Source: a virus
Virus record (IMG/VR): IMGVR_UViG_3300009165_000006
Direction: 5' to 3' (one strand)
Length of the DNA stretch: 64,000 bases
A model generated the notes under the pieces. That model worked only from the letters and a program-made list of their open reading frames with translations, made no database searches and was not told the origin of the DNA. The stretch's first letter is position 1. Each line of letters starts with the position of its first letter. This document shows positions 1-59,478 of this stretch, one piece after another. Position numbers and translations under genes: made by a program.

Positions 1-1572
1 AAGATCAACTTCAGGAAGGGCAGGATTCGACGGTCTTACACAGCTCTCTATGCGAAGAGGGACTCTCGTAGGGTTAGGCAAGGTAAGCTAGCTCTACCCT
101 CTTACCGTCATCACATGATGCGATTGAACAGTAATGCCGAGAGTGCCATCCTGGCAGTGATTTTCTTCGGTAAGGATTGGGTAGTGTTCGATCTTCGGGG
201 TCTACTTCGAAACGTTCGATGGCGTAACTTGTTTGTTGATGGGTCAACCCCCAGCACCTTGCTCGGCATGTTCGGGGATCCAGTGATTGACCCCAAGCGT
301 GGAGTTGTGGCCTTCTGCTACAAGGAGCAGATAGTCCCAGTTGTTTCGAAGTCGATCACGAAGATGGTCAAAGCACCGGAGTTATTGAACAAGCTCTACC
401 TAAAAAGTGAGGATCCCTTAGTTCTAGTGGCTATAGATCTAGGTCAAACTAACCCTGTGGGGGTTGGAGTCTATCGAGTGATGAATGCTAGCCTCGACTA
501 TGAGGTTGTTACTCGGTTCGCCTTGGAGTCGGAACTACTCCGTGAAATTGAGTCCTACCGACAGAGAACGAATGCATTCGAGGCTCAGATCAGAGCTGAG
601 ACTTTTGATGCAATGACTTCAGAAGAACAAGAGGAGATTACCCGGGTTAGGGCGTTCTCAGCATCGAAGGCGAAGGAGAATGTGTGCCATCGATTCGGAA
701 TGCCTGTTGATGCCGTGGATTGGGCTACAATGGGATCAAATACCATTCACATAGCCAAATGGGTGATGCGTCACGGTGACCCAAGTTTAGTTGAGGTGCT
801 CGAGTACAGAAAAGACAACGAGATCAAGCTAGATAAGAATGGGGTACCCAAGAAAGTCAAGTTGACGGACAAGAGGATTGCCAACCTGACCAGTATTAGA
901 TTGAGGTTCTCCCAAGAGACCAGCAAGCATTACAACGATACGATGTGGGAGCTGAGACGTAAGCATCCGGTCTACCAGAAGTTGTCCAAGAGCAAGGCAG
1001 ACTTCTCTCGTCGAGTGGTGAACTCCATTATTAGGAGGGTCAATCACCTAGTTCCACGAGCGAGGATTGTATTTATCATCGAGGATCTGAAGAACCTCGG
1101 CAAAGTGTTTCATGGAAGTGGAAAACGCGAGCTCGGTTGGGATTCCTACTTTGAACCAAAGAGTGAAAACCGATGGTTCATCCAGGTGCTTCATAAGGCT
1201 TTCAGCGAGACTGGTAAGCATAAGGGGTACTACATCATAGAGTGTTGGCCAAACTGGACTAGCTGCACATGCCCTAAGTGCAGTTGCTGTGACTCTGAGA
1301 ATCGCCATGGTGAGGTATTCCGGTGCTTAGCCTGCGGATATACTTGCAATACGGATTTTGGTACAGCCCCAGACAACCTAGTCAAAATTGCTACTACAGG
1401 TAAGGGTCTGCCCGGGCCGAAAAAGAGATGCAAAGGGTCCAGTAAGGGGAAAAACCCTAAGATCGCTCGATCGAGCGAAACCGGTGTATCTGTTACCGAA
1501 TCAGGTGCACCAAAGGTCAAAAAGAGTAGCCCAACTCAAACGAGTCAGAGCTCCTCGCAATCTGCGCCCTAA
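1..1572 (+). CDS. Cas12/TnpB-family RuvC nuclease, candidate type V CRISPR effector (5' end lies outside window)
   Basis: Frame is open from nt 1 (no stop before the first ATG at 115), so >=523 aa. RuvC-I VLVAIDLG (D at nt 436-438), RuvC-II IVFIIEDLKNL (E at 1081-1083), CPKC...CLAC zinc finger, RuvC-III-like CNTDFGTAPDNLVKIA (D at 1354-1356). About 215-aa helical insertion between RuvC-I and RuvC-II. Lys-rich C-terminal tail. CRISPR array starts 33 nt downstream. Confidence 0.75.
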   Translation, partial: KINFRKGRIRRSYTALYAKRDSRRVRQGKLALPSYRHHMMRLNSNAESAILAVIFFGKDWVVFDLRGLLRNVRWRNLFVDGSTPSTLLGMFGDPVIDPKRGVVAFCYKEQIVPVVSKSITKMVKAPELLNKLYLKSEDPLVLVAIDLGQTNPVGVGVYRVMNASLDYEVVTRFALESELLREIESYRQRTNAFEAQIRAETFDAMTSEEQEEITRVRAFSASKAKENVCHRFGMPVDAVDWATMGSNTIHIAKWVMRHGDPSLVEVLEYRKDNEIKLDKNGVPKKVKLTDKRIANLTSIRLRFSQETSKHYNDTMWELRRKHPVYQKLSKSKADFSRRVVNSIIRRVNHLVPRARIVFIIEDLKNLGKVFHGSGKRELGWDSYFEPKSENRWFIQVLHKAFSETGKHKGYYIIECWPNWTSCTCPKCSCCDSENRHGEVFRCLACGYTCNTDFGTAPDNLVKIATTGKGLPGPKKRCKGSSKGKNPKIARSSETGVSVTESGAPKVKKSSPTQTSQSSSQSAP

Positions 1573-1604
1573 GTCACCTAGATCATTGATAACTCCAGGA
1601 GCTA

Positions 1605-1936
1605 GGATCCAATCCTTTTTGATTGCCCAATTCGTTGGGACTACCCCAAAAAGATCCACGAGGCCCGAGTGATCGACGGATCCAATCCTTTTTGATTGCC
1701 CAATTCGTTGGGACGATGACACTCTGGGTTCCCCAAGCCGGCCACGTTTTCCAAGGATCCAATCCTTTTTGATTGCCCAATTCGTTGGGACTAGGCACCT
1801 TCGGAGAGGTTCGACTGGGCAGCCTTGGATCCAATCCTTTTTGATTGCCCAATTCGTTGGGACATATCGCTTTGTCGGACGCTGAGTTCGAGATGATTAG
1901 GGATCCAACCCTTTTGATTGCCCAATTCGTTGGGAC
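1605..1936 (+). CRISPR. CRISPR array: 5 repeats (4 x 37 nt GGATCCAATCCTTTTTGATTGCCCAATTCGTTGGGAC plus a degenerate 36-nt terminal copy), 4 spacers (36, 40, 35, 37 nt)
   Basis: Repeats at 1605-1641, 1678-1714, 1755-1791, 1827-1863, 1901-1936. The first four are identical; the last has T->C and one fewer T. Spacers are unique and 35-40 nt. The 3' half of the repeat forms a CCCAA/UUCG/UUGGG hairpin. The degenerate repeat is distal to the nuclease gene, so transcription probably runs left to right. Confidence 0.9.
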
Positions 1937-2452
1937 CAGTCTTATTCCTCCTACGAGCATTACACGGTCCTCGAGAACGTGGCCCTCGGTCTGAGGTACC
2001 GAGGGATCCCAAAGAAAGAACGAGAAGCCAAAGCCATGGAGATGATCGTCAAGGTCGGTCTCGAGGGGCATGAGCACAAGTTCGCCAAGTACCCGGACCT
2101 CTCAGGCGGGCAACTCCAACGTGTAGCCATTGCTCGAAGCATCGCCTACGACAGCCGGATCCTCCTAATGGACGAACCCTTTGGAGCCCTTGACCTCGAG
2201 ACTCGTAGCCAGATGCAGGAGATGATCGCTCAATTGTGGTTGAGCATCACCCCTACCATCATCATGGTGACCCATGACATTTCGGAGGCGGTCTACTTGG
2301 GTGATACCATCTATGTGATGGGTAGAAACCCTGGAAACCTCAAGAGGAGTTTCATCTCGCCTTTGCCTCTTGAGCGGAACAAAAGTATGAAACGTAGCCC
2401 TGAATTCACTCGAACTGTTCAAGATATCGAAGACTACATGTCCTCGATATGA
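1937..2452 (+). pseudogene. 5'-truncated ABC transporter ATP-binding protein fragment (NitT/TauT-like: LSGGQ signature, Walker B ILLMDEPFGALD, H-loop VTHD); no Walker A
   Basis: The frame of ORF 1979-2452 is open back to 1937, immediately after the last CRISPR repeat (EHYTVLENVALGL...). N-terminal Walker A and Q-loop are absent. Confidence 0.8.
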
Positions 2453-2464
2453 CTCTTTGCTCAC
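2402..2464. repeat. copy A of a diverged direct repeat (3' end of the ABC-ATPase gene)
   Basis: gaattcactcgaactgttcaagatatcgaagactacatgtcctcgatatgactctttgctcac; about 80% identical to 3212-3274. Confidence 0.7.
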
Positions 2465-2484
2465 CGAGGAAACGGCAAGACGAT

Positions 2485-3015
2485 TCAGACTTTCCTTCTC
2501 AAGTATTCAATTCGCTCTTGCGTTTTTTGGAGCTCTTCAGGTGAGTACATGTCGAGGTTGACTCTGAGATTGGTTTCGAGAGCTTCCAACTCTCTGCGAG
2601 CCTGGTATTTGGCTTCCGCGGCACGACTTCTGGGTTTAATCAGATACTGGATTTTCCCTTTTAGCTTACGCTTAGCTACGATAGTACCGATAGGGGTTTC
2701 GGTACCAATAGGGATAGATCTAAGAGTAAACGTGGGTCCGAAGTCACTATCGAAACCATGTCCCTCGATTTTGGCGTTTTCCTCTTGGATGAAGCATCCA
2801 TCTTTCCAAGGTTTGTCTGCCTCATCCTTTGGGATCCGCTCTGGTTTGCCAGGTCTACCGCTCTTTGAGAAGTACTGAACCTCTACGGTAGAGTCCAGGT
2901 AGCGCTGTTTAACCTTTTGCGCTTCAGCGTGTTTGTAATCCGACTCCCACTGCTGGTAAACCTTTTTGAGGTTTACCGGGCCTTTTTGGAGTGGACCGGC
3001 TTCGATGGAGATCAA
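2485..3015 (-). CDS. hypothetical protein (176 aa), lies between the direct-repeat copies
   Basis: ORF track; no recognisable motif. Confidence 0.4.
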   Translation of the reverse strand: MISIEAGPLQKGPVNLKKVYQQWESDYKHAEAQKVKQRYLDSTVEVQYFSKSGRPGKPERIPKDEADKPWKDGCFIQEENAKIEGHGFDSDFGPTFTLRSIPIGTETPIGTIVAKRKLKGKIQYLIKPRSRAAEAKYQARRELEALETNLRVNLDMYSPEELQKTQERIEYLRRKV

Positions 3016-3211
3016 TCTTTGGATGCTTCCTGGGGCACCCTGTCCGAACTTCCCGTTATCATCAAACTCTGTATTCTCTAACTCCTATGAAAGTGGTCCA
3101 GTACTCACCTTGAGATGGGAGTGACTTAGCCTTGTCGACCAGAGCTTGGATAACTTCGCTTTTCACCTCCTAGTTGTAGTATAAGAACAAAAACTAGGTA
3201 CGTTCAAGGGC

Positions 3212-3274
3212 GAATTCACTCAAACTGTTCAAACCATCGAGGACTATGTGTCCTCGATGTAGTCCTTTGTTCAC
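3212..3274. repeat. copy B of the diverged direct repeat (non-coding remnant of the ABC-ATPase 3' end)
   Basis: gaattcactcaaactgttcaaaccatcgaggactatgtgtcctcgatgtagtcctttgttcac. Together with copy A it flanks minus-strand ORF 2485-3015. Confidence 0.7.
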
Positions 3275-3360
3275 ACATCGGAACGTTATCGAGAGCCACA
3301 GATCTTCAATCCAACTTTCAGTATGCCCCTTAGGCAAATTCTACTTATAATTGTTTCCGT

Positions 3361-4029
3361 TTGTCCTACTTAGAGGGACGGACACACTATAAGTCTAGAA
3401 AGGAAAGTATGGGACTAGCTCATTTGAACATTTGGGTCCGGAATCGAAACTGTGACCTACTAACCGATATGTGGCGTACTGATTTGGTCATTCAAGCCTG
3501 TACCGGCACGTACCTGGTTGACATTTGGCCGGAGATCTTAAGCCAATTGCAGACTCGGTATCCTACTTACACGATACTGAGTCACTTCTACCAAGGGGCT
3601 CAACGGATCATGATGATGCCGCCGTCAGGGACCTTCTTCAATCACATTGAGGTTGATATCCCTCCTGGCTGTTACAAGGTGTGGACTCGTTGCTGTCACG
3701 GACAGAACGAGGAGACCTCAGTTCAGTTGATCTCTCCACGATGCGGGGAGGAAGCTTGCGTGAATCTGTTGCTGCCGTCTCTCAAGGTATGTGCCCAACA
3801 GATTGTGCACCCGCTCATCGACCATATCGCTGTTCAGGGGGCCTTCCCGGCGGTGGCTGATAGGCTCGTCATTCTGAAAGGGGTGATGTACGCAGGGGAC
3901 ATTGGTCGAGCCCTTTTGCTTGAGCAGTTGCAGTACCGCTTGTCTGAGGCTGTGGCGAAGGGAGACACGGCTCTGCAGGCTCGTGTCAATGCCGTGATAG
4001 CTCTTGCCGATCAGCTTCCAGCTTGCTGA
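3361..4029 (+). CDS. hypothetical protein (222 aa)
   Basis: ORF track; no motif recognised. Confidence 0.35.
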   Translation: MSYLEGRTHYKSRKESMGLAHLNIWVRNRNCDLLTDMWRTDLVIQACTGTYLVDIWPEILSQLQTRYPTYTILSHFYQGAQRIMMMPPSGTFFNHIEVDIPPGCYKVWTRCCHGQNEETSVQLISPRCGEEACVNLLLPSLKVCAQQIVHPLIDHIAVQGAFPAVADRLVILKGVMYAGDIGRALLLEQLQYRLSEAVAKGDTALQARVNAVIALADQLPAC

Positions 4030-4599: not shown

Positions 4600-5082
4600 A
4601 TGCCAGAAAGTACCATTCCAACTCTCGCAGTACTCGAAGTTGTGGGTTTTGACCAATTCCGTGAGGTAGTAGCCGTCAAGGAATCAGGTTCAAATCGAGT
4701 AAAGTACCTCACCGCTGTGAGTGGTTCTCAGAAGTCATTCGTCGATGTTAGGACTAAGAATGGTCAGATCTTTCGACTTCCAGTAGATCAAGATAGCTAT
4801 GAAGCTATCTGCGAGGATACAATGTCCAACAAAGGTAGTCGTCAAATCAAGAACGTATCTGGGCACCCGCTTCCTAGCTCCTATGCGCGAGATCGAGCTA
4901 AGGAGTATCAAGAGAGGTATGGGTCTCTTGATTCTATCGACTTCAAACGAGCGTGGGCTGAGGCTCAGATGCTCGACTCCACACTACCCCCGAACCCTCC
5001 CAAATATGTCCCTGAGGAAGCTCAGAAGGCCATCACTCTACTGGCTCGGAGAATTCTCAAACTCGAATCGGAGTGGTCATGA
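4600..5082 (+). CDS. hypothetical protein (160 aa)
   Basis: ORF track. Confidence 0.4.
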   Translation: MPESTIPTLAVLEVVGFDQFREVVAVKESGSNRVKYLTAVSGSQKSFVDVRTKNGQIFRLPVDQDSYEAICEDTMSNKGSRQIKNVSGHPLPSSYARDRAKEYQERYGSLDSIDFKRAWAEAQMLDSTLPPNPPKYVPEEAQKAITLLARRILKLESEWS

Positions 5083-20931: not shown

Positions 20932-21561
20932 ATGTTCTTCTGGTTCGGATTGGCCCCTTGGATCTGGGGGTTTGAATTTGTACTGTTTGTAGGGCTTATT
21001 GTGCTAGTCGAATTCGAGTTCTACAAGTGGTCCACCGCAACCCTCATAGGAGCTCTCGTACTGAGTCACTTCCTGCATGCGTTCTCAGTAGTGGATCTAG
21101 TAAGGCATAACCCTGGAACCTCCTTTATCGTAGTCCTGAGCTATTTCCCTGCGGGCACCATATGGGCAACCTTCAAGTGGTTCTTGTTCCTCTATCGGTT
21201 CAAGGACGCCAGGATGGATGCCTTGGATGAGTTCCATGATATTCAGGAAGCGGCTCGAGCTCGAATCGCTTCGGGTGCTGTCTACACAATGGATGAGGAG
21301 TTGGTCAATAAGACGGATTACCAGTATTTGCGTAGCCAATACTTCAAGAAGACCAACCTTTCGAAGATCCCACGTGTCCGTGACTACAAGAGGAAGGTTA
21401 TCGGTTGGATTGCGTTCTGCGTGTTTTCGATAGTTGGCACTATCTTCCACGACCTGGTTCGTAGGATCGCACTCTGGATCTACAATCGAGTCAGCAGTTT
21501 CCTTCAGTGGATGTCAAATCGGATTATCTCCGAGGTGGAAGAAATACCTGAAAAGACCTAG
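20932..21561 (+). CDS. integral membrane protein (209 aa)
   Basis: Several hydrophobic helices (FFWFGLAPWIWGFEFVLFVGLIVLV; IGWIAFCVFSIVGTIF). Confidence 0.45.
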   Translation: MFFWFGLAPWIWGFEFVLFVGLIVLVEFEFYKWSTATLIGALVLSHFLHAFSVVDLVRHNPGTSFIVVLSYFPAGTIWATFKWFLFLYRFKDARMDALDEFHDIQEAARARIASGAVYTMDEELVNKTDYQYLRSQYFKKTNLSKIPRVRDYKRKVIGWIAFCVFSIVGTIFHDLVRRIALWIYNRVSSFLQWMSNRIISEVEEIPEKT

Positions 21562-22451
21562 TGAACCAAGGTTCGCTCGAAGGCCTCGTTGTTGAGCACA
21601 ATCATGATGGAGGGTGGATCCGGAGCGTTCGCTTGACGAGTTGACTCATCGTACTCGTGGCAACCCCACTCACCCTTCTCCATGTAAGGTTGAACTCTTA
21701 CCCATGTTCCGATACTTGGATCAATGGCTGCAGCAGCCGCTATTGTGTCGTGAAGGGCCTTCCCCTCTGGGCGCTTTTTGAAGTAAAAAGCCATCCCTTC
21801 CTTGATGAGGTCAAGCCCAGCATGGGCTCCGGAAGGGATTCTCTCATTGACCATAGGACCCCAGAAGACACCGTGACAAACGTTCTTGGAAACCATCCGT
21901 CGAGTCCAGATAGGTGAGTTTTTACCCAGTAAACCGAGGGCTGCTTTCGAGTCGCCCCCAAGGTTGAAGGTCGGACAGGTGAGCTTGCCGGCGAACTTGG
22001 GTAGCCGGTGTTCGGGTGGGACGATGTTGTCTCCGGCGAAGCCACCCTGGCAAGTCCACGTACGGAAAAACGGCCACACCTCACTGCTAGCCTTCCAGAT
22101 GTTGGTGAGGGCCGCTCCAGTGATTAGGTGGGTGGTTGGAAAGTCCAGTAGTACCTGCTTAATGACCTCAGTGGCGCTTCCCTGGGGCTGACAGGGGGAG
22201 ATCTTCCCAAGCCAATCATAGTGGAACTGGGACACCTTAGAAGTTTGCTTCTTGAGGCTCCCAATTCCGATAGGCACGTCCGTCCGCCCAAGACGATCGA
22301 GGACATGACGAACTATCCCGACCTGGTCGAAACCTCCTGGATGGATCGTAGCCCCAACGAGTTTGGCTCGGGGATGAGTAGCAAGGAGCGCTAGAGTGAA
22401 CACGTCATCTGGGTCACTCGTTTCCATGTCGAACAGATATTCTTGAGTCAC
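21558..22451 (-). CDS. nucleoside hydrolase-like protein (IU-NH/RihA fold candidate)
   Basis: N-terminal DMETSDPDDVFTLALL resembles the DxDxxxDD aspartate cluster of nucleoside hydrolases. GTG start. Divergent from the ADP-ribosylglycohydrolase gene. Confidence 0.4.
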   Translation of the reverse strand: MTQEYLFDMETSDPDDVFTLALLATHPRAKLVGATIHPGGFDQVGIVRHVLDRLGRTDVPIGIGSLKKQTSKVSQFHYDWLGKISPCQPQGSATEVIKQVLLDFPTTHLITGAALTNIWKASSEVWPFFRTWTCQGGFAGDNIVPPEHRLPKFAGKLTCPTFNLGGDSKAALGLLGKNSPIWTRRMVSKNVCHGVFWGPMVNERIPSGAHAGLDLIKEGMAFYFKKRPEGKALHDTIAAAAAIDPSIGTWVRVQPYMEKGEWGCHEYDESTRQANAPDPPSIMIVLNNEAFERTLVH

Positions 22452-22514
22452 TTGAAATCAATCTCAGGTTATAGGAGTGGCTGCCACCTAAATTTCGATG
22501 GTGTATCAGCTACC

Positions 22515-23456
22515 ATGCCCTCTTCGTTGAGTAAAGCCCAAGCTTGTCTGCTGTGTCATGTGGTCGGAGACTCCCTTGGGAGCCTCGTAGAGTTCGAGTC
22601 CGAGGAGACCATCCTTCAGGAGCACCAAGGAGAAAAAGTGCGCTACCTCGCTGATGGGGGCACCTGGGAGACCTTGGCGGGGCAAGGCACAGACGATTCC
22701 GAAATGGCCATCACCCTAGCTAGGACTCTCATTCACCATGGTTTTTACAGCTCAACCATTATGCGGAGTATGTATTGCTATTGGCTCAATAGCCAACCAT
22801 TTGACGTTGGCAGGACCACTCAAAATGGACTCCTGGATATGCCTGACTTCCACAGCCAAGCCAATGGGGCTTTGATGCGTGTCGCCCCCTTGGGGATCTT
22901 TGGAGCGAAGAAGAAGGACTGGAGAAAGACCATGATCTGGGCGATGGAGGATGCCCTTATTACGCACCCAAATCAAATATGCTTACAAATCAATGCACTT
23001 TATGTATCGATGATCGATCAAGCAATCGGAAGTGATGCAAGCCCAGATCAACTCTACGGTGCGCTGGCCGCAACAGCAGTGGATATGGAAGCCCATCCAG
23101 TTATCCTCGAAGCTATCGACCGAGCTAGAACTGCCCCACCGGAAAACTACATGGTGAATATGGGTTGGGTTGTCCTCGCTTTCCAGAATGCGCTCTATCA
23201 ACTACTACACGCCCCGTCATTGACTGAAGGAATTGTCGATACCGTCAATCGCGGAGGTGATACCGATACCAACGGAGCAATTGCCGGTGCTCTGCTTGGG
23301 GCTGTTTACGGGATGGAGCAAGTCCCCAAGGATTGGATCGATGGAGTAACCCAATGTTGCCCATCGGTGACCAACCCCTACTCTAGAAAGCCACGTACAG
23401 GCTTCTTTTGGACTAATGATGTGCTAGAAGTAGCCAAAAAACTACTTGATAGTTGA
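22515..23456 (+). CDS. ADP-ribosylglycohydrolase (DraG/ARH family)
   Basis: GDSLG, GQGTDDSEM, GALMRVAPLG and GGDTDTNGAIAGALLGA motifs. In-frame ATG within track ORF 22443-23456. Confidence 0.8.
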   Translation: MPSSLSKAQACLLCHVVGDSLGSLVEFESEETILQEHQGEKVRYLADGGTWETLAGQGTDDSEMAITLARTLIHHGFYSSTIMRSMYCYWLNSQPFDVGRTTQNGLLDMPDFHSQANGALMRVAPLGIFGAKKKDWRKTMIWAMEDALITHPNQICLQINALYVSMIDQAIGSDASPDQLYGALAATAVDMEAHPVILEAIDRARTAPPENYMVNMGWVVLAFQNALYQLLHAPSLTEGIVDTVNRGGDTDTNGAIAGALLGAVYGMEQVPKDWIDGVTQCCPSVTNPYSRKPRTGFFWTNDVLEVAKKLLDS

Positions 23457-45398: not shown

Positions 45399-46643
45399 TC
45401 ATAGGAGAACTCCGATGTTCACTTCCTGCTTCAACGAGACATGACTCGTAGGCCGAAGGGTTCTCCTTCGTTCCGCCGCTAGAGGACTCTCCACAGGCTT
45501 TTTAGCGCCGAAGGCGCCTAGGTTCCTCGGGAACTCCGAGTACCTTTCCAAATTCTTCGCCGCATTCTCATCTCGATCATGAATAGCTCCACATCCTTCA
45601 CAAACCCACTCTCTCACAGAAAGAGCCAGCTGCGGCCGTTTAAGGCCGCAGCTGGTACATATCTTCGAGGATGGGAACCATCGATCAGCTACTTCTAGCT
45701 TAGATCCATACCAAGTGGTCTTGTAGGAAAGTAGCCTCTTACTTTCAAACCACCCTTGGTCCAAGATCGACCGAGAAAGGTGAGGATTCTTACTCATTCC
45801 ACGAATACCAAGGTCTTCCACAACGATGGCTGACTTGGTTTTCGCCAGCCCCGTTGTGAACTTATGAAGGAAATCCCTTCGAACGTTTGCTACTCGTGAG
45901 TGAATCCTCGCTAATCTTTGAGCTGATTTCCTCCTATTTGACGAACCCTTACGCTTCCTCGAATGAGAGCGTTGAGCCCTTCTTAACCGACTTAACGCTT
46001 GTTTCAATGGATTCGGGGCATGTATCTTCGTACAGGCCCCGTCCGAAGAGACCGTAGCGAAAGTAAGAATCCCTAGATCTACCCCAGCTTTTGGTCCTTG
46101 GATAGGAATAGGATCCGTCACGACCTCAACGGTATTGACGGATACGAACCATCGATCTGCTACCCTCGAAATCGTAGCTGAAAGGATCTCCCCACTAATC
46201 CTGCCGTTGATCTTCTCTTTGGTTCGAATAGTCCCAAGCCTAGGGAGCTTAATATACCTAGTTTGTGGCTCAATTGAACCATAGAGACGGAAGGAATCCT
46301 TTGATTTATGCTTCTTTTTGAACTTTGGGAAGCCAACTCCTTCTGATCTTCTGGACCAGAAAGCTTTGAAAGCTTTGTCAAGATCACGAAGAGCTTCCTG
46401 AGGGGCACACTTGGAAACCTCGTACATCCAAGGGAAGTCAGGGCCCTTGCGGGCGTTGAGGTCCCGATGTTCAGCGATGGCGTTGGTGAACTTCTCCTTA
46501 CCTTCTTGGGTTCGGAAGCGTTCGATCCTCCTTTGGAGGGACCAATTCCAAGCGAAGCGAGCCGTTCCGGCATGCTTCGCCAAGAACGTCCGAACCCGAT
46601 TGTTCGGATCTAACTCGAACTTATACGCCTTCCGAAGTTCCAT
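45399..46643 (-). CDS. tnpB: TnpB (IS605 OrfB-family RNA-guided RuvC nuclease)
   Basis: N-terminal MELRKAYKFELDPNNRVRTFLAKHAGTARFAWN (OrfB HTH), RuvC-I KAGVDLGI, RuvC-II AIVVEDLGIRGM, zinc finger CTSCG...CEGCG, RuvC-III IHDRDENAAKNL. 414 aa. Confidence 0.9.
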   Translation of the reverse strand: MELRKAYKFELDPNNRVRTFLAKHAGTARFAWNWSLQRRIERFRTQEGKEKFTNAIAEHRDLNARKGPDFPWMYEVSKCAPQEALRDLDKAFKAFWSRRSEGVGFPKFKKKHKSKDSFRLYGSIEPQTRYIKLPRLGTIRTKEKINGRISGEILSATISRVADRWFVSVNTVEVVTDPIPIQGPKAGVDLGILTFATVSSDGACTKIHAPNPLKQALSRLRRAQRSHSRKRKGSSNRRKSAQRLARIHSRVANVRRDFLHKFTTGLAKTKSAIVVEDLGIRGMSKNPHLSRSILDQGWFESKRLLSYKTTWYGSKLEVADRWFPSSKICTSCGLKRPQLALSVREWVCEGCGAIHDRDENAAKNLERYSEFPRNLGAFGAKKPVESPLAAERRRTLRPTSHVSLKQEVNIGVLL

Positions 46644-50291: not shown

Positions 50292-51218
50292 GTGCTAGCA
50301 ACAAGAAAATGCGCATTCGACTCATGCGAGATAGAGTTCGAACCAACACATCCATACCAACAATACTGCTGTACTAGGTGCAAGGAGCGCGCTCGTTGGC
50401 ATCGTTCAGAACAGATTGAAAAATCCAAGAAACGCAGCCAAAAGTGGTACTCCGATCCGGAAAATAAGCTCAACCACAGGGTAGCTCGAAGGGGTAGACG
50501 CATGTCAGTAAAAACTGGTAGAGGTGAATGGGAGATGCCAGCCCCAATGATCGAATACCTACCGGGCGGATGCGTCCCGATTGCTATTGAGTGTGGGTAT
50601 AAGTTCGAACATTGGCAACTTGCATCACTTCACGGAATGATGAGTACGATCACTGGACCTCACTCAGCCAACAACCCAGTATTTACACTGTTTCCGTGGC
50701 ACATAGGGTGCGGATGGGCCGCGTACATTCGAGATATTGAGTTAGCCAGATCGATTGCCATGCGTACACACGTGGTCAACTTCAATGACCGTGAGCAGGA
50801 ACTCGCTCTAGGATGGCTCGTACGTGTCAAAGCACCACAGATCAAGCCAGGTGCTTGGAAACTTCGAATCACAACTATTACACCTGTGTGTTGTCGCGCA
50901 ACTGGAGGGACTTATTACATGGCTCCAACTGCGAACAACATCAAAGGGACTCTTGAGGTAAACGTTGCACGAAGGCTTGGAATAAAGACTGAGAAACACG
51001 ACGTTCAGGTCAGATTGCTTGACTCAAAAGCCTTCTTAGACAAGCTTCGACTATCTGGCAATGGCAGCAAGCTTGGTGACATTTGTGGGTGGTCTGGAAG
51101 CATCGACATTGAAGTGAATGCGCTTGGTAGGCTTCTGCTTGAATGTGCCGCCCTCGGCATGGGATTGGGAGGCAAGTTGGCGTTTGGATTTGGGCGAATC
51201 AAGGTAGAGACAATATGA
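50292..51218 (+). CDS. RAMP-like protein with C-terminal glycine-rich loop (Cas6-like candidate); N-terminal Cys cluster
   Basis: Extreme C-terminus ALGMGLGGKLAFGFGRIKVETI fits the RAMP G-rich loop GhGxxxxxGhG. N-terminal CAFDSC...CCTRC. GTG start; its TGA stop overlaps the next ATG (ATGA). Confidence 0.4.
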   Translation: MLATRKCAFDSCEIEFEPTHPYQQYCCTRCKERARWHRSEQIEKSKKRSQKWYSDPENKLNHRVARRGRRMSVKTGRGEWEMPAPMIEYLPGGCVPIAIECGYKFEHWQLASLHGMMSTITGPHSANNPVFTLFPWHIGCGWAAYIRDIELARSIAMRTHVVNFNDREQELALGWLVRVKAPQIKPGAWKLRITTITPVCCRATGGTYYMAPTANNIKGTLEVNVARRLGIKTEKHDVQVRLLDSKAFLDKLRLSGNGSKLGDICGWSGSIDIEVNALGRLLLECAALGMGLGGKLAFGFGRIKVETI

Positions 51219-52387
51219 GGCCCTCGCCAAGTCAGCTGCTTCACAAAGCAATAGGAAGCCCGCGGGTTGACGGGTGCTCGGAGGCAAACGGTCTTTGCTA
51301 CGTTTGCGCAGGTCCTGTAGTTCGAGGAAAACCCGTTGTCGACTGGTGTACTTCAAGTTACACAGATCAGAATCGTGCGCGTTGTCCTGCAGCAATTTAC
51401 GTCTGTGAGGCATGTTGCATGCTTGCTGCACGTACTTTTCCAGTCCCTGGGCGCCCGCCAGGACAGTGTTCGGTTTGCGAGGGAACCGGAACTGTGAAAA
51501 AGATTCCTCCCAAGGGCAAAGGAAAGGCGTCCAAGATCGGAGACGCTTGCCCTAAGTGTGGTGGTACGGGCGAAGCGTCGTTCGGTGGCAACTTCCGCAA
51601 TTACAGCCACCTATATGAGGAGGGGTGGGATTCACCGTCACTTCCGGATGGAACCGTGATCCCAGGCTACCTGAACGCATCAAAGGGAGAAAAACCGATC
51701 GTGCTTAACTTCCTAAGGCGTGACCACCACGGCATGTGGTTCGCTGCAATCGCAGACAGTGGACAGAAGCATGTGGTGCATCATACACCACCGAACCTGC
51801 TCGGTCCAGGCGGAACGGTGCTGTTCGAGGAGACGCTTGTTAGCATCCCACCAGGTCTCTCGCTGGTAGACGAAATGACAGCACTTCTCACCGCTGGAGC
51901 AACAAAGGAAGAGATTCTCATCGGAGAATATAGCCAGTTCACATGGCTGCGCTTGGAGACAGCAATCCGTGAATTTGAGGGTCGTAACGCGAAGCGGCGG
52001 CATACTGGGTGGTTTCGTTTGGCGCTATGGCTATCTCAACGAGATGAGGCAGCAGTAGCTATAAGGATTGAAGCCGAGAAGGCAGCAGAGAAAGAACGTA
52101 AGGCACGGACCAAACAGAGAACCAAGGAGACTCAAAGTGTTGAAACAGGAAGAAAGAAAGCATCTCGAAACACTTCTTGTCGAGATGCTGTTATCGATCC
52201 GAGACCGGTATGTGAAGGACAAAGGGGGGAAGGTAAAGCCGGACTACCTCGAACAGATCCAAAACCGAGCCAGAACAAGTGCAGAAATGTCACCGACCAT
52301 CAATCGGTGGGTGAACGAGCTTCAAATAGACCTACAAATGCAGAGCATCGACACGTGGGGCAGCTCAGCCTCTTCAACGCTCCTTGA
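51215..52387 (+). CDS. cysteine-rich protein with CxxCxGxG zinc-finger repeats (possible large-subunit analogue); 3' end uncertain
   Basis: CYVCAGPV, CSVCEGTG and CPKCGGTG repeats. C-terminal ~100 codons are low complexity and overlap the next gene in another frame. Confidence 0.4.
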   Translation: MRPSPSQLLHKAIGSPRVDGCSEANGLCYVCAGPVVRGKPVVDWCTSSYTDQNRARCPAAIYVCEACCMLAARTFPVPGRPPGQCSVCEGTGTVKKIPPKGKGKASKIGDACPKCGGTGEASFGGNFRNYSHLYEEGWDSPSLPDGTVIPGYLNASKGEKPIVLNFLRRDHHGMWFAAIADSGQKHVVHHTPPNLLGPGGTVLFEETLVSIPPGLSLVDEMTALLTAGATKEEILIGEYSQFTWLRLETAIREFEGRNAKRRHTGWFRLALWLSQRDEAAVAIRIEAEKAAEKERKARTKQRTKETQSVETGRKKASRNTSCRDAVIDPRPVCEGQRGEGKAGLPRTDPKPSQNKCRNVTDHQSVGERASNRPTNAEHRHVGQLSLFNAP

Positions 52388-52607
52388 TCTAGTAAGCTTC
52401 TGCGACGAACACTCGTGCCACAGAGAAGCGAAAATGATGGTAATTCGCGATGGTGCGTTCTTGTTTGCATTGCTCCGCAAACAGATCGAACTTCGCAAAG
52501 AAGAACGGGAGCGAGAGAAGCAGGAGCGAATCCTTGGGAAACTTACCAAGGAAGACATGTTGGCAGCAGCAGAAGAGAATGGATTGTTAGTTGAGGAAAC
52601 GGCATAA
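52137..52607 (+). CDS. small alpha-helical protein (~156 aa; Cas11-like small-subunit candidate) starting at GTG inside the 3' part of the upstream gene
   Basis: AAGGAG SD 7 nt upstream of GTG 52137. Sequence is helical and charged. Its TAA stop overlaps the next ATG (TAATG). Confidence 0.4.
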   Translation: MLKQEERKHLETLLVEMLLSIRDRYVKDKGGKVKPDYLEQIQNRARTSAEMSPTINRWVNELQIDLQMQSIDTWGSSASSTLLDLVSFCDEHSCHREAKMMVIRDGAFLFALLRKQIELRKEEREREKQERILGKLTKEDMLAAAEENGLLVEETA

Positions 52608-53590
52608 TGGAGACAACTCGATACATTTCGGTGGTCAGGGCAGTTCAACCGATCGCGCATCACAAGGGTAGTATCGGAAATCACGCAACGATCATGCGTG
52701 CAGCTGTAAGGCTTCCTGGCGGAGAGATCGCAGACGTGCCAGAGGGCACTGGTAACGCAGTTAGAAATCGATTACGCCGAGCTGCCGCGATCTGTTCATT
52801 GGACGCAGCTGGAATTCTGGGGGATCCCCAACTCGAACGTGGAGCGATGCGGCTGCTGTTCAACGGCGGAATGCTCACTGGAAAGGGTGATGGGACCACG
52901 ATCAACATCGATCGATGGCGCGAGCTTGTGACGCTATTCCCGTTTCTTGGGATCCTTGGGGGTTGCATCGACAATCGTACCCAAGGCGGACAACTCAATG
53001 TTGACGCACTGAAGCTCATCTGCGAGGAAAACATGCACTCGCTAAATCCATGGACGCGACAGTGGCTCAAGGATAACAATGAAGGGATCTGCGAAAGCTC
53101 CTACCTACTTGAGAAAGTTCAACGGGTGAATATGGACCCGGAGATCCTTCCCGAGAACCTGAAACTGCTTTCGGAGGGTGCGAGGTTACAAGTCTATAAC
53201 AAGCTACTAGCACAGGGTAAAGCTCACGAGGAGGGGAACGCGATCGAGGCCGCAAAAGTCAAGAGCGACATGATGCCGCATACGTTCGAGCGAATCATTC
53301 GCGGGTCATTGTTTCAACTGTCGTTCTTGTTGAGGTCTTATAACGAGCTTGAGCGAGACGCTTTCGAGTACGCCTACTCCTGCCTATTGAACAACTTCCG
53401 TTTCGGAGGAAAACAAGCATCAGAACACGGGGAACTCGAATTCCTTGCGGGTGCCAGGGTTCACTTCAAACAATACACAGGAGAGCTCGACATCGGTGAG
53501 CGAAAAGGAACCGGTGATCTGTTCCGAGCGCACGTTACCGATCACAAGGAACAGCTGGTGAACTGGTTACGGCACGAGGTAGCAGCGTGA
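52607..53590 (+). CDS. Cas7-like backbone protein candidate (327 aa)
   Basis: Operon position between the small-subunit-like and Cas5-like genes. Gly-rich segments LLFNGGMLTGKGDGTT and FRFGGKQASEHGE. N-terminal VP.GTGNAVRNRLRR resembles the RAMP S.KG..R motif. Weak. Confidence 0.3.
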   Translation: METTRYISVVRAVQPIAHHKGSIGNHATIMRAAVRLPGGEIADVPEGTGNAVRNRLRRAAAICSLDAAGILGDPQLERGAMRLLFNGGMLTGKGDGTTINIDRWRELVTLFPFLGILGGCIDNRTQGGQLNVDALKLICEENMHSLNPWTRQWLKDNNEGICESSYLLEKVQRVNMDPEILPENLKLLSEGARLQVYNKLLAQGKAHEEGNAIEAAKVKSDMMPHTFERIIRGSLFQLSFLLRSYNELERDAFEYAYSCLLNNFRFGGKQASEHGELEFLAGARVHFKQYTGELDIGERKGTGDLFRAHVTDHKEQLVNWLRHEVAA

Positions 53591-54240
53591 ACTACGAGCC
53601 AATCAAGGTCAGCTGCAAGCTTGCCGAGGGGTTCGTAATGCGAACCCCTACCGTGTTGGATTCACTATTGGCCGCAGTGATAGCAATGCGTGAGCAGTTG
53701 CCTACTCCGATATCCGAGGACGAAATCAAAGAGATCCCAGTACCCATTGACGAAGCTGCTGGGATTCGACTGTGCTCATCGGCCATGTTTGAGATAGAGG
53801 AGACATTCGGCTCATTTCGAACACGACGCCCACCAATCGAAGAATACTGCCACTTTGGAAAGCGTGGTGGTTCCGTATCGATTGCTAGTGGCCCCGACAA
53901 GCTCTATATGATGGAGTATGACTACCAGTTCGCAGTTGACGACAAAGTGACATGGTTTGCATTGGGAGACATTGTCAGTGTACACAACTTACTGACGGAT
54001 GTATTCTACCTCGGCAAACATCGCTCAATCGGCAAAGGGCGGATCATTGAAGGCTCATGGAAGGTTGAAAGCTGTAAACCCTGGGGTGAAGGGTTTCCGG
54101 TGGTTCATAACGGCACTCCGAAGCGTCCCTTGCCGTTAGGTTGGCCTGGCGTGGCCACGACAACCAGGACCGGTTACGCAACGTTACGACCCCCCTATTG
54201 GATGTACTCTCGTGAGGAAGCCTGCTTCCTCCCAGGATAG
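53587..54240 (+). CDS. RAMP-like protein with glycine-rich loop (Cas5-like candidate, 217 aa)
   Basis: FYLGKHRSIGKGRI loop. GTG start overlapping the upstream stop (GTGA). GAGGT SD. Confidence 0.35.
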   Translation: MNYEPIKVSCKLAEGFVMRTPTVLDSLLAAVIAMREQLPTPISEDEIKEIPVPIDEAAGIRLCSSAMFEIEETFGSFRTRRPPIEEYCHFGKRGGSVSIASGPDKLYMMEYDYQFAVDDKVTWFALGDIVSVHNLLTDVFYLGKHRSIGKGRIIEGSWKVESCKPWGEGFPVVHNGTPKRPLPLGWPGVATTTRTGYATLRPPYWMYSREEACFLPG

Positions 54241-55701
54241 ATGAAAGCTCTAGCTTGCACGCTCGACACATGGGATGCCTTCGCAAGGGCCACCGGAAGA
54301 ACTGAGACCACCGGTCTCACGTTTCCCCTACGAATACTCGAGATTATCGGAAAGCCCTACGGACTAGAGCTCGAATACGCGAACAAACTGAACCGCCATG
54401 ACGCAGTGTTCATAGCGGTTCACGACTTTAGTTCGATGCTGTCCCTTGGAAAGGCGATGCAGAAGCTGAAATTGCCGCTACTTGCCAAAGACCGCGACCG
54501 AAGTCACCCGCTCGTATGGATGGGCGGACAAGGTACACGCAATCCGCTACCTATTGCCGATATTGCTGACTTGATAGTGCTTGGGGATGCAGAGCTCTCG
54601 CTGCCTCAATTACTCCAAATATGGGAGCGAAATGGGAACAGTAGAGAGTTCCTGGTGGGAGCGTCTACTGTCTCTGGGGTATTCGTTCCTTCGATCCACA
54701 ACGAAAATGAGGTGACCCTGAAAATGGGTTGGTCACCGGATATACGAACTTCACTTCAAAGCAGAAGCCTACCAATGGAACAGCATGCCAGAATCGAGCT
54801 CTCGCGTGGATGCAAGAGCAAGTGCTCATTCTGCGGACTCGGATGGATGGGTCCAGTTCGACATAACACCTTGGACGACGTACGGGATGCTATCCGAGGA
54901 GTGCCTTCGGTCCACCTGCAGGCTTGCGATGCCGAAGCTTACCCGGACATCGTTCGGTTGCGTGAGTGGATGCGCGAGAGAGGAATCAAAGACACCGGGT
55001 GTACCTCACGTCTCGATTCTAATTACGATGCTAGGAGCGAATTTCTATTCGACAAGTTGTTCAATTTCGGAATCGAGGCTGTGACCGAGCGTGTCCGCCG
55101 CAAAATCGGCAAGGCCAGACTAACGAACGACTTCATCGTTGAGGCTATGTGCGGGCTATACGAGAGACAGAAAACGCGGAAGGGTGAAGCCTGTGAGAAG
55201 ACCAATTGGCACATGATCTCTGGACTTCCGGGGGAGTTGGTATCTGAAACCGCGGAACTGGCGCAGACAATCCGAAGGCTCGATGCGACAATGCTGGAAC
55301 GGAGAATCACCGGGCAGCTAACGATCCGATGGCAACCGTTACTACCCTGTCCTGGGACACCACTGCAGTGGTGTCCCATTGGGCCGGATTGCGAGCCGTG
55401 GAGTAAGGCCTTGGCCAGAAACATCCGCAAAACGTACTGTCTGAAGCTAGAACATGGTTCCGGGAGACAGGAACGAAAGCACGCCCTGACCTGTATACTG
55501 ATGCGGTCAGGGCGTGTGGGGGCAAAGCTGATCGCACTTGAGTCAAAGTCTGCGGTTACCCCAGTTGCCGCGGTCGAGCTTACCGGGACGACTACCGGTA
55601 AGCTCGACCTTAGTGGTCCGCTTCCATGGGATTTCGTGCATGGTTACTACCCGCGAGGGGTGCTCGAAAAGGCCTACAAAAAGACCATACAATGCACGTA
55701 G
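54241..55701 (+). CDS. B12-binding-domain radical SAM enzyme
   Basis: IELSRGCKSKCSFCG contains the CxxxCxxC cluster in the RGC..C.FC context typical of cobalamin-dependent rSAM enzymes. N-terminal B12-binding-like region (IAVHDFSS...LVWMGGQGT). ATG immediately after the upstream TAG. Confidence 0.65.
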   Translation: MKALACTLDTWDAFARATGRTETTGLTFPLRILEIIGKPYGLELEYANKLNRHDAVFIAVHDFSSMLSLGKAMQKLKLPLLAKDRDRSHPLVWMGGQGTRNPLPIADIADLIVLGDAELSLPQLLQIWERNGNSREFLVGASTVSGVFVPSIHNENEVTLKMGWSPDIRTSLQSRSLPMEQHARIELSRGCKSKCSFCGLGWMGPVRHNTLDDVRDAIRGVPSVHLQACDAEAYPDIVRLREWMRERGIKDTGCTSRLDSNYDARSEFLFDKLFNFGIEAVTERVRRKIGKARLTNDFIVEAMCGLYERQKTRKGEACEKTNWHMISGLPGELVSETAELAQTIRRLDATMLERRITGQLTIRWQPLLPCPGTPLQWCPIGPDCEPWSKALARNIRKTYCLKLEHGSGRQERKHALTCILMRSGRVGAKLIALESKSAVTPVAAVELTGTTTGKLDLSGPLPWDFVHGYYPRGVLEKAYKKTIQCT

Positions 55702-58122: not shown

Positions 58123-59478
58123 ATGAAAGTCCCTGAAAGAGTCCGTTTTATCTGCAGTATCTTGAATCAAGCAGGCTTTGAAGCCTGGGTTGTTGGTGGC
58201 GCAGTGCGCGACTCTATACTTGGCCGAGAAGCTCACGACTTCGATGTGGCCACTAATGCTCTCCCTGATAGAGTCGTCAGGCTGTTCAGTCGTGTCATTG
58301 AGACCGGTATCCAACATGGAACGGTCACGGTCATGATTGAAAACGAGGGCTTCGAGGTCACCACCTTCCGTGGTGAAGGTACCTACTCGGATGGGCGCCA
58401 CCCAGATAGTGTCAGGTTCTTGGACTCTATCATCGAGGACTTGGCTCGTCGAGACTTCACAATGAATGCGGTCGCGTACGACCCCTTGACAGGGAAGTTC
58501 TGTGACCCCTTCGGTGGGGTGCAGGATATCGAATGCATGCTCATCCGAGCTGTAGGATCTCCTGAAGAAAGATTCCAAGAAGACGGCTTGAGAGTCATGC
58601 GAGCTATTCGTTTCATGAGTACTCTGGGATTCTCCATTGAACCACGTACTCTCGAAGGTATGGCGAAGATTGATTCCCTAGCCTCCCTAGCCAAGGTCAG
58701 CGTTGAACGGGTCAGGGACGAGCTCTTTAGGATCATGGGCTCGAAAGCACCCTCTCGTTCAATGAATGCCATAGTTCATACCGGAGTCTTGGACGTGATC
58801 CTACTAGAGATGCGCCCGATGGTTGGGTGTACTCAAAATCGGTACCATTCCTACGACGTTTGGACCCACACGATGGTTACTCTCGACCATTGTCCGGATG
58901 ACAACCCTATCCTCAGGTTTGGGGCTCTCTTTCACGATATCGCAAAGCCCGAGGTGAAAGGGGTTCACCCAGTCCATGGGGATGCCACTTTCTACGATCA
59001 TGAGCTGGTGGGGGCAAAGAAGACCGATGAGATCTTGACTCGGTTGAGGTTCTCAACCGAAGATCGGGAGAAGATTGTTCACTTGGTTGAGCACCACTTC
59101 ATCCGGTACGAACACGAGTGGTCGAATTCAGCGCTTCGTCGTTGGGTTCGGAAGGTTGGATTGGAGAGCGTCCCCACTTTCTGCACTCTCGCCCGGGCGG
59201 ACATCGCCGGGAAAGGGCCTATAGCCACAGTTGAATCCGAGAATTCAGTCATTGATGACCTGGAGAATCGGGTATCCAGACTGCAATTGACCGAAGTGAT
59301 CCCAACGTCAATCAAGGTGCTTGCCATCGACGGGAACGACGTGATGGCTCACTTGGGTATAGGACCAGGCCCTAGGATAGGAAGAGTGCTAGAAAGCCTT
59401 CTAGACGCCGTAACGGAGGACCCAGAACTCAACACCCGGGAGAAGCTCTTGGAGCTTGCCAGGGAAGTTCAAGTGTGA
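58123..59478 (+). CDS. cca: CCA-adding tRNA nucleotidyltransferase (class II) with HD domain
   Basis: WVVGGAVRDSILGREAHDFDVAT (GGxVRD...DxD), RDFTMNA, and HD domain HSYDVWTHT...LFHDIAKP. 451 aa. Confidence 0.85.
   Translation: MKVPERVRFICSILNQAGFEAWVVGGAVRDSILGREAHDFDVATNALPDRVVRLFSRVIETGIQHGTVTVMIENEGFEVTTFRGEGTYSDGRHPDSVRFLDSIIEDLARRDFTMNAVAYDPLTGKFCDPFGGVQDIECMLIRAVGSPEERFQEDGLRVMRAIRFMSTLGFSIEPRTLEGMAKIDSLASLAKVSVERVRDELFRIMGSKAPSRSMNAIVHTGVLDVILLEMRPMVGCTQNRYHSYDVWTHTMVTLDHCPDDNPILRFGALFHDIAKPEVKGVHPVHGDATFYDHELVGAKKTDEILTRLRFSTEDREKIVHLVEHHFIRYEHEWSNSALRRWVRKVGLESVPTFCTLARADIAGKGPIATVESENSVIDDLENRVSRLQLTEVIPTSIKVLAIDGNDVMAHLGIGPGPRIGRVLESLLDAVTEDPELNTREKLLELAREVQV

Follow-up and report, generated by a model that had tools for sequence, protein, structure and literature searches.

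Using homology searches, structure prediction and covariation analysis together with comparison to related contigs, our work here assigns the CRISPR–Cas locus at the left end of a viral DNA stretch (IMG/VR record IMGVR_UViG_3300009165_000006; the 64,000 nucleotides (nt) analysed are called the window) to type V-J. The locus encodes a Cas12j (CasΦ) effector and is a divergent addition to a known family rather than a new kind of system, and it could coincide with one of the published Cas12j-4 to -10. We consider it highly probable that this is a functional type V-J locus on a large mobile element, one that would process its own guide RNAs, carry a fixed set of guides and behave as an exchangeable module with a recombined right end. 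A sequence-only reading of the same DNA had described a single-effector type V system of the miniature kind, lacking adaptation genes, and had put Cas12j/CasΦ first among its candidates, a view borne out by the full-length match to CasΦ-2, CasΦ-3 and Cas12j-SF05 described below.

The window begins inside the effector gene. As the sequence-only reading had it, the frame is open to the first nucleotide and the protein has at least 523 residues: in the reading of the open reading frames (ORFs), frame 1 runs from nt 1 to a TAA stop at 1570–1572. A database search returned a 793-residue protein (P0001) that is 100% identical to this 523-residue fragment, and the contig that encodes it, L001, matches the window at all 1,633 overlapping nt. 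Window nt 1–1572 therefore represent the C-terminal 523 residues of a 793-residue Cas12j whose codons 1–270 precede the window. Upstream extension of the contig, a check that the earlier reading had proposed, was thus achieved through an identical contig; the full protein lies inside the 700–800-residue Cas12j range and has the standard Cas12j N-terminal half, so that nothing unusual is hidden upstream.

Searched with phmmer against all PDB chains, the 523-residue fragment matches CasΦ-2 (E = 1.4e-91), CasΦ-3 (1.5e-90) and Cas12j-SF05 (9e-87), and the matches to Cas12f and TnpB reach E ~1e-7 over the zinc ribbon only. With the 793-residue protein the same three structures are matched over the full length (E = 5e-140, 4e-134 and 3e-128, respectively), residues 19–784 aligning collinearly with residues 18–756 of CasΦ-2, and TnpB structures align over just 61 residues. 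An AlphaFold2 model built with 38 homologs is confident over all domains (predicted local distance difference test 83.8, predicted template-modelling (TM) score 0.71). It contains the Cas12j fold including the N-terminal OBD/REC half, and it also has a disordered insert at residues 265–302 and a long low-complexity C-terminal tail at residues 746–793. Foldseek aligns the model with 7lyt (E 7e-55) and 7odf (E 4e-54) at TM scores of 0.70–0.80 over ~760 columns and 35% identity; the next family after Cas12j is Cas12f, and both Cas12f and TnpB stay at TM scores of at most 0.48. Within the family the protein is divergent. Its full-length relatives are at most 40% identical (P0019, the Cas12j-SF05 match, at ~38–40%) and the solved structures ~35% identical; the closest relative, on contig L017, is 61% identical but has lost the N-terminal third and the array, solitary copies of the repeat's 3' handle alone remaining.

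The active site points the same way. The catalytic codons that the sequence-only reading had placed at nt 436, 1081 and 1354 are real: they align to D413, E618 and D708 of Cas12j3, whose catalytic role was validated by mutation (PMC8298400), and D416, E631 and D722, together with the zinc-ribbon cysteines C694, C697, C712 and C715, are invariant in an alignment of 38 family members. The protein has a single RuvC Asp/Glu/Asp site and a zinc ribbon, with no HNH domain, as expected of Cas12j. Between RuvC-I and RuvC-II lie 215 residues, against 212 in CasΦ-2 and 205 in Cas12j3. The earlier reading had drawn attention to an insertion of ~215 residues here; its size and its excess over the TnpB of the window (45399–46643, minus strand; 87 residues between D189 and E276) both stand, but it is nothing special, being the normal Cas12j spacing.

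These data also speak to the idea that the gene is a transposon-borne nuclease of the TnpB/IS200-605 kind, with the repeats serving as element ends or as a scaffold of its omega RNA. A RuvC and zinc-ribbon core is indeed common to both families and a genuine TnpB lies elsewhere in the window, yet the protein has 793 rather than ~400 residues, carries the full Cas12j N-terminal half and is followed on its 3' side by a regular repeat–spacer array. Within window nt 1–4000, gene and array are not flanked by inverted repeats. The sequence-only reading had itself named a transposon origin as an outcome that would speak against it; what we find is full-length Cas12j homology and no bracketing inverted repeats in that span, which makes such an origin exceedingly improbable. 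We accordingly rejected a TnpB (IS200/IS605) identity, given that the zinc ribbon alone matches, that the alignment spans 61 residues and that an array stands where element ends would be.

A Cas12f (type V-F) identity was rejected as well, and here the family databases need a word of caution. Pfam, NCBIfam and PADLOC contain no Cas12j model and give weak Cas12f/TnpB matches, so that the protein would be mis-filed there. The NCBIfam Cas12f2 model gives 32.6 bits with its cut-off at 450, the PADLOC Cas12f match (E ~1e-7) covers the C-terminal region alone, and the Pfam Cas12f1-like_TNB match, at the zinc ribbon, is weak and below the Pfam cut-off. Besides the low score and the restriction of the match to the C-terminus, the window and L001 hold no anti-repeat. 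Among 50,697 phage records there is no match to window nt 1–2000 (megablast) or to the full protein (tblastn); the 793-residue protein has no NCBI or UniRef record, its sources being JGI and Logan alone, and a full-text literature search with the repeat and protein strings found no match.

Downstream of the effector gene lies the array (Table 1). Its four exact 37-nt repeats at a 72–77-nt period are not explicable by chance, and because the identical array and the identical right-hand junction occur in contig L018, an independent assembly from another sample, an assembly artefact is excluded. The sequence-only reading had described four identical 37-nt repeats, spacers of 35–40 nt and a degenerate last repeat, all of which hold, and a gap of 33 nt to the gene, which is in fact 32 nt. 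Repeats of 37 nt and spacers of 35–40 nt on the same strand, 32 nt 3' of the gene, fit what is described for Cas12j arrays (repeats of ~36 nt, spacers of 35–38 nt; bioRxiv 10.1101/2025.09.16.676532), and in each of the nine related loci that are long enough the array likewise lies 3' of cas12j and shares its strand. There is no second array anywhere in the 64-kb window, scanning the window for Rfam families and tRNAs gave no match, and the repeat is absent from IMG/VR.

Table 1. Features of the type V-J locus and of the other nuclease and CRISPR–Cas genes in the window
Feature	Position (nt)	Strand	Details
cas12j (casΦ) coding sequence, codons 271–793 and stop	1–1572	+	identity to P0001/L001, homology, structure match
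RuvC-I catalytic Asp, D416 of full protein	436–438	+	aligns to Cas12j3 D413
RuvC-II catalytic Glu, E631	1081–1083	+	aligns to Cas12j3 E618
Zinc ribbon CxxC...CxxC, C694/C697/C712/C715	1270–1335	+	invariant cysteines
RuvC-III catalytic Asp, D722	1354–1356	+	aligns to Cas12j3 D708
Gap from cas12j stop to first repeat, 32 nt	1573–1604	+	no sigma-70-like promoter found
Repeat 1 (GGATCCAATCCTTTTTGATTGCCCAATTCGTTGGGAC), 37 nt; 3' 21 nt are the crRNA handle	1605–1641	+	5-bp stem, UUCG loop
Spacer 1, 36 nt	1642–1677	+	no target found
Repeat 2	1678–1714	+	identical 37-mer
Spacer 2, 40 nt	1715–1754	+	no target found
Repeat 3	1755–1791	+	identical 37-mer
Spacer 3, 35 nt	1792–1826	+	no target found
Repeat 4	1827–1863	+	identical 37-mer
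Spacer 4, 36 nt	1864–1899	+	no target found
Terminal (fifth) repeat, 5' 16 nt degenerate, 21-nt handle perfect	1900–1936	+	also in L018
5'-truncated NitT/TauT-type ATP-binding cassette (ABC) ATPase gene, codons 100–270, fused to terminal repeat	1937–2452	+	
IS605-type TnpB, 414 residues	45399–46643	-	HTH_OrfB_IS605 + OrfB_IS605 + zinc ribbon; E = 2e-68 to ISDra2 TnpB
csf1/Cas8-like	51143–52387	+	E = 2e-13
csf2/Cas7	52607–53590	+	E = 9e-33
csf3/Cas5	53587–54240	+	E = 1e-29
Radical-SAM gene directly 3' of csf3	54241–55701		

The handle of the repeat ties the array to the effector family. It folds as CCCAA-UUCG-UUGGG, a 5-bp stem closed by a tetraloop, in agreement with the 5-nt stem and tetraloop of the Cas12j handle (PMC9917002). 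The published Cas12j-2 repeat, GTCGGAACGCTCAACGATTGCCCCTCACGAGGGGAC (PMC11048056), and the window repeat have in common GATTGCCC, a terminal AC, the 5-bp stem and its 4-nt loop; compensatory changes distinguish the two inner pairs of the stem, AA/UU in the window versus CU/AG in Cas12j-2. We aligned 11 repeats: the window's, the published one of Cas12j-2 and those of nine related loci. In this alignment, pairing in the stem reaches 98% and 16 cells are doubly changed; the covariation score of the stem was reached by none of 500 shuffles, and all slid registers collapse. The likeness to Cas12j repeats that the sequence-only reading had suggested has thereby been computed, as a common GATTGCCC...GGGAC handle with a stem that covaries over the 11 repeats. 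A reverse-complement copy of the handle (an anti-repeat; 21 nt, at most 4 mismatches) occurs neither in the 64-kb window nor in L001, consistent with the Cas12j mechanism, which is free of trans-activating CRISPR RNA (tracrRNA) (PMC8298400).

Adaptation genes are missing from the locus. Among the Pfam matches of 107 window ORFs (listed completely at E ≤ 1e-4) there is no Cas1, Cas2 or Cas4, and the precomputed Pfam matches upstream in L001 (2.1 kb) and L018 (10 kb) include none either, Thg1 being the sole entry. The absence of cas1, cas2 and cas4 reported earlier thus holds over the window ORFs and the recorded upstream flanks of both contigs, and it is shared with almost all huge-phage CRISPR systems (PMC7162821). 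Without Cas1, Cas2 or Cas4 the array cannot grow alone, which, together with its identity in L018, indicates that its guides are a fixed set; they number four, or five with the unit formed by the terminal repeat and the adjoining ABC gene. Elsewhere in the family, arrays do differ: those of contigs L007 (8369–8650) and L015 (682–1190) have four spacers in common, L015 with three extra internal spacers, so that Cas12j-family arrays change by internal gain or loss even without Cas1–Cas2.

Taken together with what is established for Cas12j1, j2 and j3, whose processing and cleavage steps have been worked out (PMC8298400, PMC9917002), these features lead us to propose how the locus would work. In Cas12j the RuvC site processes the effector's own precursor CRISPR RNA (crRNA), with no tracrRNA, and the protospacer-adjacent motif (PAM) is T-rich, or TTN (PMC8298400, PMC9917002). 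By homology, transcription would read through cas12j into the array; the two are probably co-transcribed, as no promoter lies between them. The 793-residue protein would bind the 3' hairpin handle of each repeat, and the precursor RNA would be trimmed by the single RuvC site without a tracrRNA. The 35–40-nt spacers would then guide the complex to double-stranded DNA flanked by a T-rich PAM, where the same RuvC site would cut. The guides are probably aimed at competing mobile elements, and the promoter region, cas12j and the array would behave together as an exchangeable module.

Several observations weigh against a working locus of this kind. No sigma-70-like promoter for the array was found in the 32-nt gap. 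None of the spacers has a protospacer in INPHARED, PLSDB, IMG/VR, the window or the fetched loci; spacers 1–4 were compared with the window, INPHARED phages, PLSDB plasmids, IMG/VR (as 24-mers) and all fetched loci and gave no match. The sister copies of cas12j in the window/L001 and in L018 differ by 6 non-synonymous against 2 synonymous changes, tiny numbers with no sign of purifying selection. On a separate point, a scan of bacterial genomes for the handle gave two matches, in two rumen Bacteroidales metagenome-assembled genomes; both lie in one and the same conserved gene (methionine synthase by eye), and they were rejected as host arrays and put down to coincidence.

One could accordingly posit a decaying relic, an unused Cas12j with a frozen mini-array kept only through recent copying between genomes. 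The lack of adaptation genes, an array identical in two genomes, spacers for which no targets were found, the excess of non-synonymous over synonymous differences between the sister genes and the loss of the N-terminal third and the array in the 61%-identical relative on L017 would all agree with decay. Against this, the 793-codon ORF is intact with all catalytic and zinc residues present, the first four repeats do not differ at any position, the fifth has kept a perfect handle, and the AlphaFold2 model is confident in all domains; missing adaptation genes are, moreover, the norm for functional Cas12j loci (PMC7162821). We regard a relic as unlikely and retain a functional locus as the preferred reading.

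The window holds a further set of CRISPR–Cas genes that the first reading had missed, a type IV csf1–csf2–csf3 module at 51143–54240. No Cas6/Csf5, DinG or CysH was detected with the module at 51–54 kb, nor an array of its own, and for these reasons it looks type IV-B-like; such modules normally come without arrays (PMC9071438). Since csf1–3 have no array and the one beside cas12j is the sole array in 64 kb, it could be imagined that the array, wholly or in part, feeds a Csf1–Csf2–Csf3 complex encoded 50 kb away, instead of or besides Cas12j. The repeat, however, bears the Cas12j-specific handle and adjoins cas12j, no processing enzyme of the Cas6/Csf5 type was detected, and IV-B-like modules are normally array-free (PMC9071438); we think such a supply very unlikely.

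The right-hand end of the array leads us from the effector to the history of the locus. What follows the terminal repeat is the C-terminal part of the ABC ATPase gene, 171 codons in frame from the Q-loop onward, with neither a Walker A motif nor an upstream start codon. Intact 270-residue homologs are 94–95% identical, and one of them closes a complete transporter operon on a contig of 293 kb. In both intact genes the homology with the window starts at codon 100, and the preceding 3 nt are TTC or TTT, that is, a TTN PAM. Terminal repeat and ABC sequence are thus arranged like a repeat whose spacer continues into the gene of its own protospacer. Further along, a 17-codon remnant of the C-terminus of an ABC paralog lies at 3212–3262 (+), 810 nt 3' of the ABC fragment.

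Divergence from L018 changes abruptly at the same point. Between the window/L001 and L018, cas12j differs at 8 of 2,382 nt (0.3%; 2 synonymous, 6 non-synonymous) and the intergenic region and array at none of 367, whereas in the ABC fragment 40 of 513 nt differ (7.8%; 34 synonymous, 6 non-synonymous), the first difference lying 6 nt beyond the junction. On the left, near-identity begins ~75 nt upstream of the cas12j ATG, and farther out L001 and L018 differ. From these sharp edges we read the cassette as having been recently exchanged between diverged genomes, and its right end appears best explained as the scar left when a spacer that once stood fifth recombined with its protospacer. Spacer–protospacer recombination that mobilises CRISPR loci is on record for staphylococcal type II/III loci and phages, going by the citation of Varble 2019 in PMC9071438.

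We put forward more tentatively, as a possibility rather than an expectation, that the cas12j–array cassette moves between huge-phage genomes by spacer–protospacer recombination, and that the joined terminal repeat and ABC sequence is at once the scar of such an event and a still expressed fifth guide against rival phages with an intact ABC operon and its TTC/TTT PAM. The fifth crRNA, if made, would read handle plus CAGTCTTATTCC..., and the element's own ABC copy would escape cleavage since the repeat replaces the PAM. For this ABC-derived candidate guide there is no exact match in IMG/VR. The scar interpretation must be set against the fact that it rests on one junction and that TTN would precede a random site with a chance of ~6%. 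A Phe codon precedes the Q-loop Gln in both intact ABC homologs read, as it does in most ABC ATPases, and this too counts against taking the TTC or TTT as a PAM. Other histories could be proposed, such as a single ancient insertion in which the cassette later underwent homologous replacement.

Solitary handles, single copies of the 21-nt element outside arrays, recur in related genomes, and there is none within the window. In L001 a lone handle lies at 2015–2035, ~110 nt upstream of the cas12j ATG and ~920–940 nt upstream of window nt 1; 35 nt of low-complexity sequence, (TTTCC)4, come next, and then the near-identity with L018 starts. This handle is not conserved, as it is absent from L018. 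Others lie in L008 (2010, 2050, 5859(-), 5896(-), 9454 and 10343), L017 (6889 and 11123), L005 (3946(-)) and L007 (5982). Four of them sit 0–8 nt upstream of an ATG, some lie 9–15 nt downstream of the hexamer GGTGTA, one in L007 falls within the first codons of cas12j, and pairs of bare handles in L008 are just 10–19 nt apart. Whole repeats also occur singly: at L007 7026–7085 a 37-nt repeat flanked by ACGGGGGATCC interrupts cas12j at the conserved GDPVIDP motif and keeps the frame, and at L008 10313–10373 a single repeat is flanked by TGAAATGACC. Both resemble insertions with 10–11-nt direct duplications. If the cassette does spread by spacer–protospacer recombination, that process could also have produced the solitary handles that related genomes carry beside start codons.

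In place of classical adaptive defence, the guides could serve regulation or hard-wired competition, in which Cas12j would bind handle-tagged transcripts or promoters through CreR- or crRNA-like RNA and thereby control its own gene or further genes of the phage. Standalone repeats upstream of cas12a are autoregulators (PMC10120712; bioRxiv 10.1101/2023.03.10.532045), and both the handle ~110 nt upstream of the cas12j ATG in L001 and the recurrence of solitary handles in relatives, several 0–8 nt before start codons and one in the cas12j of L007, invite the comparison; but the upstream handle is missing from L018, the window has no solitary handle, and no pseudo-spacer with a PAM-flanked seed match lies near a cas12j promoter. 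On that last ground CreR-type autoregulation via the upstream handle was rejected as a candidate, and guides serving regulation in this way seem to us highly improbable.

The replicon itself is most probably a huge phage, judging from the relatives of its proteins. Huge phages of the Biggiephage clade carry the Cas12j family, the Cas12j relatives lie on contigs of 300–570 kb, and an 850-residue protein of the window matches uncultured phage genomes of 462–735 kb only, and no plasmid. This assignment has to contend with the lack of any detected capsid, terminase or tail gene in the 64-kb window, and with the usual occurrence of type IV modules like that at 51–54 kb on plasmids (PMC9071438). Window 20–64 kb also has auxiliary genes of the kind that very large phages typically carry, among them those for a ThiF/E1-like protein, an RNA ligase and a GmrSD_N nuclease domain; an ADP-ribosylglycohydrolase is encoded at 22443–23456, the 850-residue protein, with a major-vault-protein shoulder domain, at 30749–33301, and a CCA-adding tRNA nucleotidyltransferase at 58123–59478. 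Upstream in L018 there is a Thg1 gene, and L018 has an extra TnpB/Cas12-like gene of more than 476 residues (21212–22382 (-)) at a site where the window lacks such a gene. The hexamer GGTGTA stands 12–21 nt upstream of 16 of 106 window ORF starts, compared with ~2 expected by chance, for example before the ORFs at 4600, 9276, 9751, 10446, 17888, 49056, 56026 and 62059; in the window it also precedes the TnpB start by 21 nt, and in L001 and L018 it stands 19 nt before the ATG of cas12j. The hexamer is probably an element-specific promoter or start-site motif.

Like CasΦ-2 (7lys, 7lyt, 7m5o) and CasΦ-3 (7odf), the type V-J effectors of huge phages with which it is collinear, the protein has the same fold, RuvC triad and zinc ribbon and the same size of 700–800 residues, with a downstream array on the same strand, no tracrRNA, no adaptation genes and a 36–37-nt repeat with the GATTGCCC...GGGAC hairpin handle. 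It departs from them in a structure-based identity of ~35%, in its disordered insert (265–302) and low-complexity tail (746–793), and in a repeat whose 5' 16 nt are unrelated and whose two inner stem pairs differ through compensatory changes. Cas12j-SF05, also Cas005 or Cas12-1 (8iew, 8wrp and others), belongs to the same family on a different branch and lies on a 570-kb contig. Cas12f and TnpB, in contrast, have the RuvC fold and the C-terminal zinc ribbon in common with it (E ~1e-7, ~60 residues), are half the size and show no homology to its N-terminal 400 residues; Cas12f acts as a tracrRNA-dependent dimer, and TnpB with an omega RNA tied to transposon ends. The right-hand junction is best compared with spacer–protospacer recombination in staphylococci, where a repeat likewise runs into a full gene exactly 3' of a PAM and the cassette is far less diverged than its flanks. 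Unlike that type II/III case, ours, as deduced from sequence alone, would involve recombination between the genomes of phages and a type V-J array carried by a phage.

The Cas12j family was described in 2020 and is actively mined for compact genome editors, and the present locus supplies a divergent ortholog together with its cognate repeat, the effector itself being biologically ordinary. The more interesting lead is the pairing of sharp cassette edges with an array fused to a target-like gene at the PAM-adjacent base. In this possible case, recombination instead of Cas1–Cas2 may be the route by which phage CRISPR loci that lack adaptation genes spread and acquire 'guides'.

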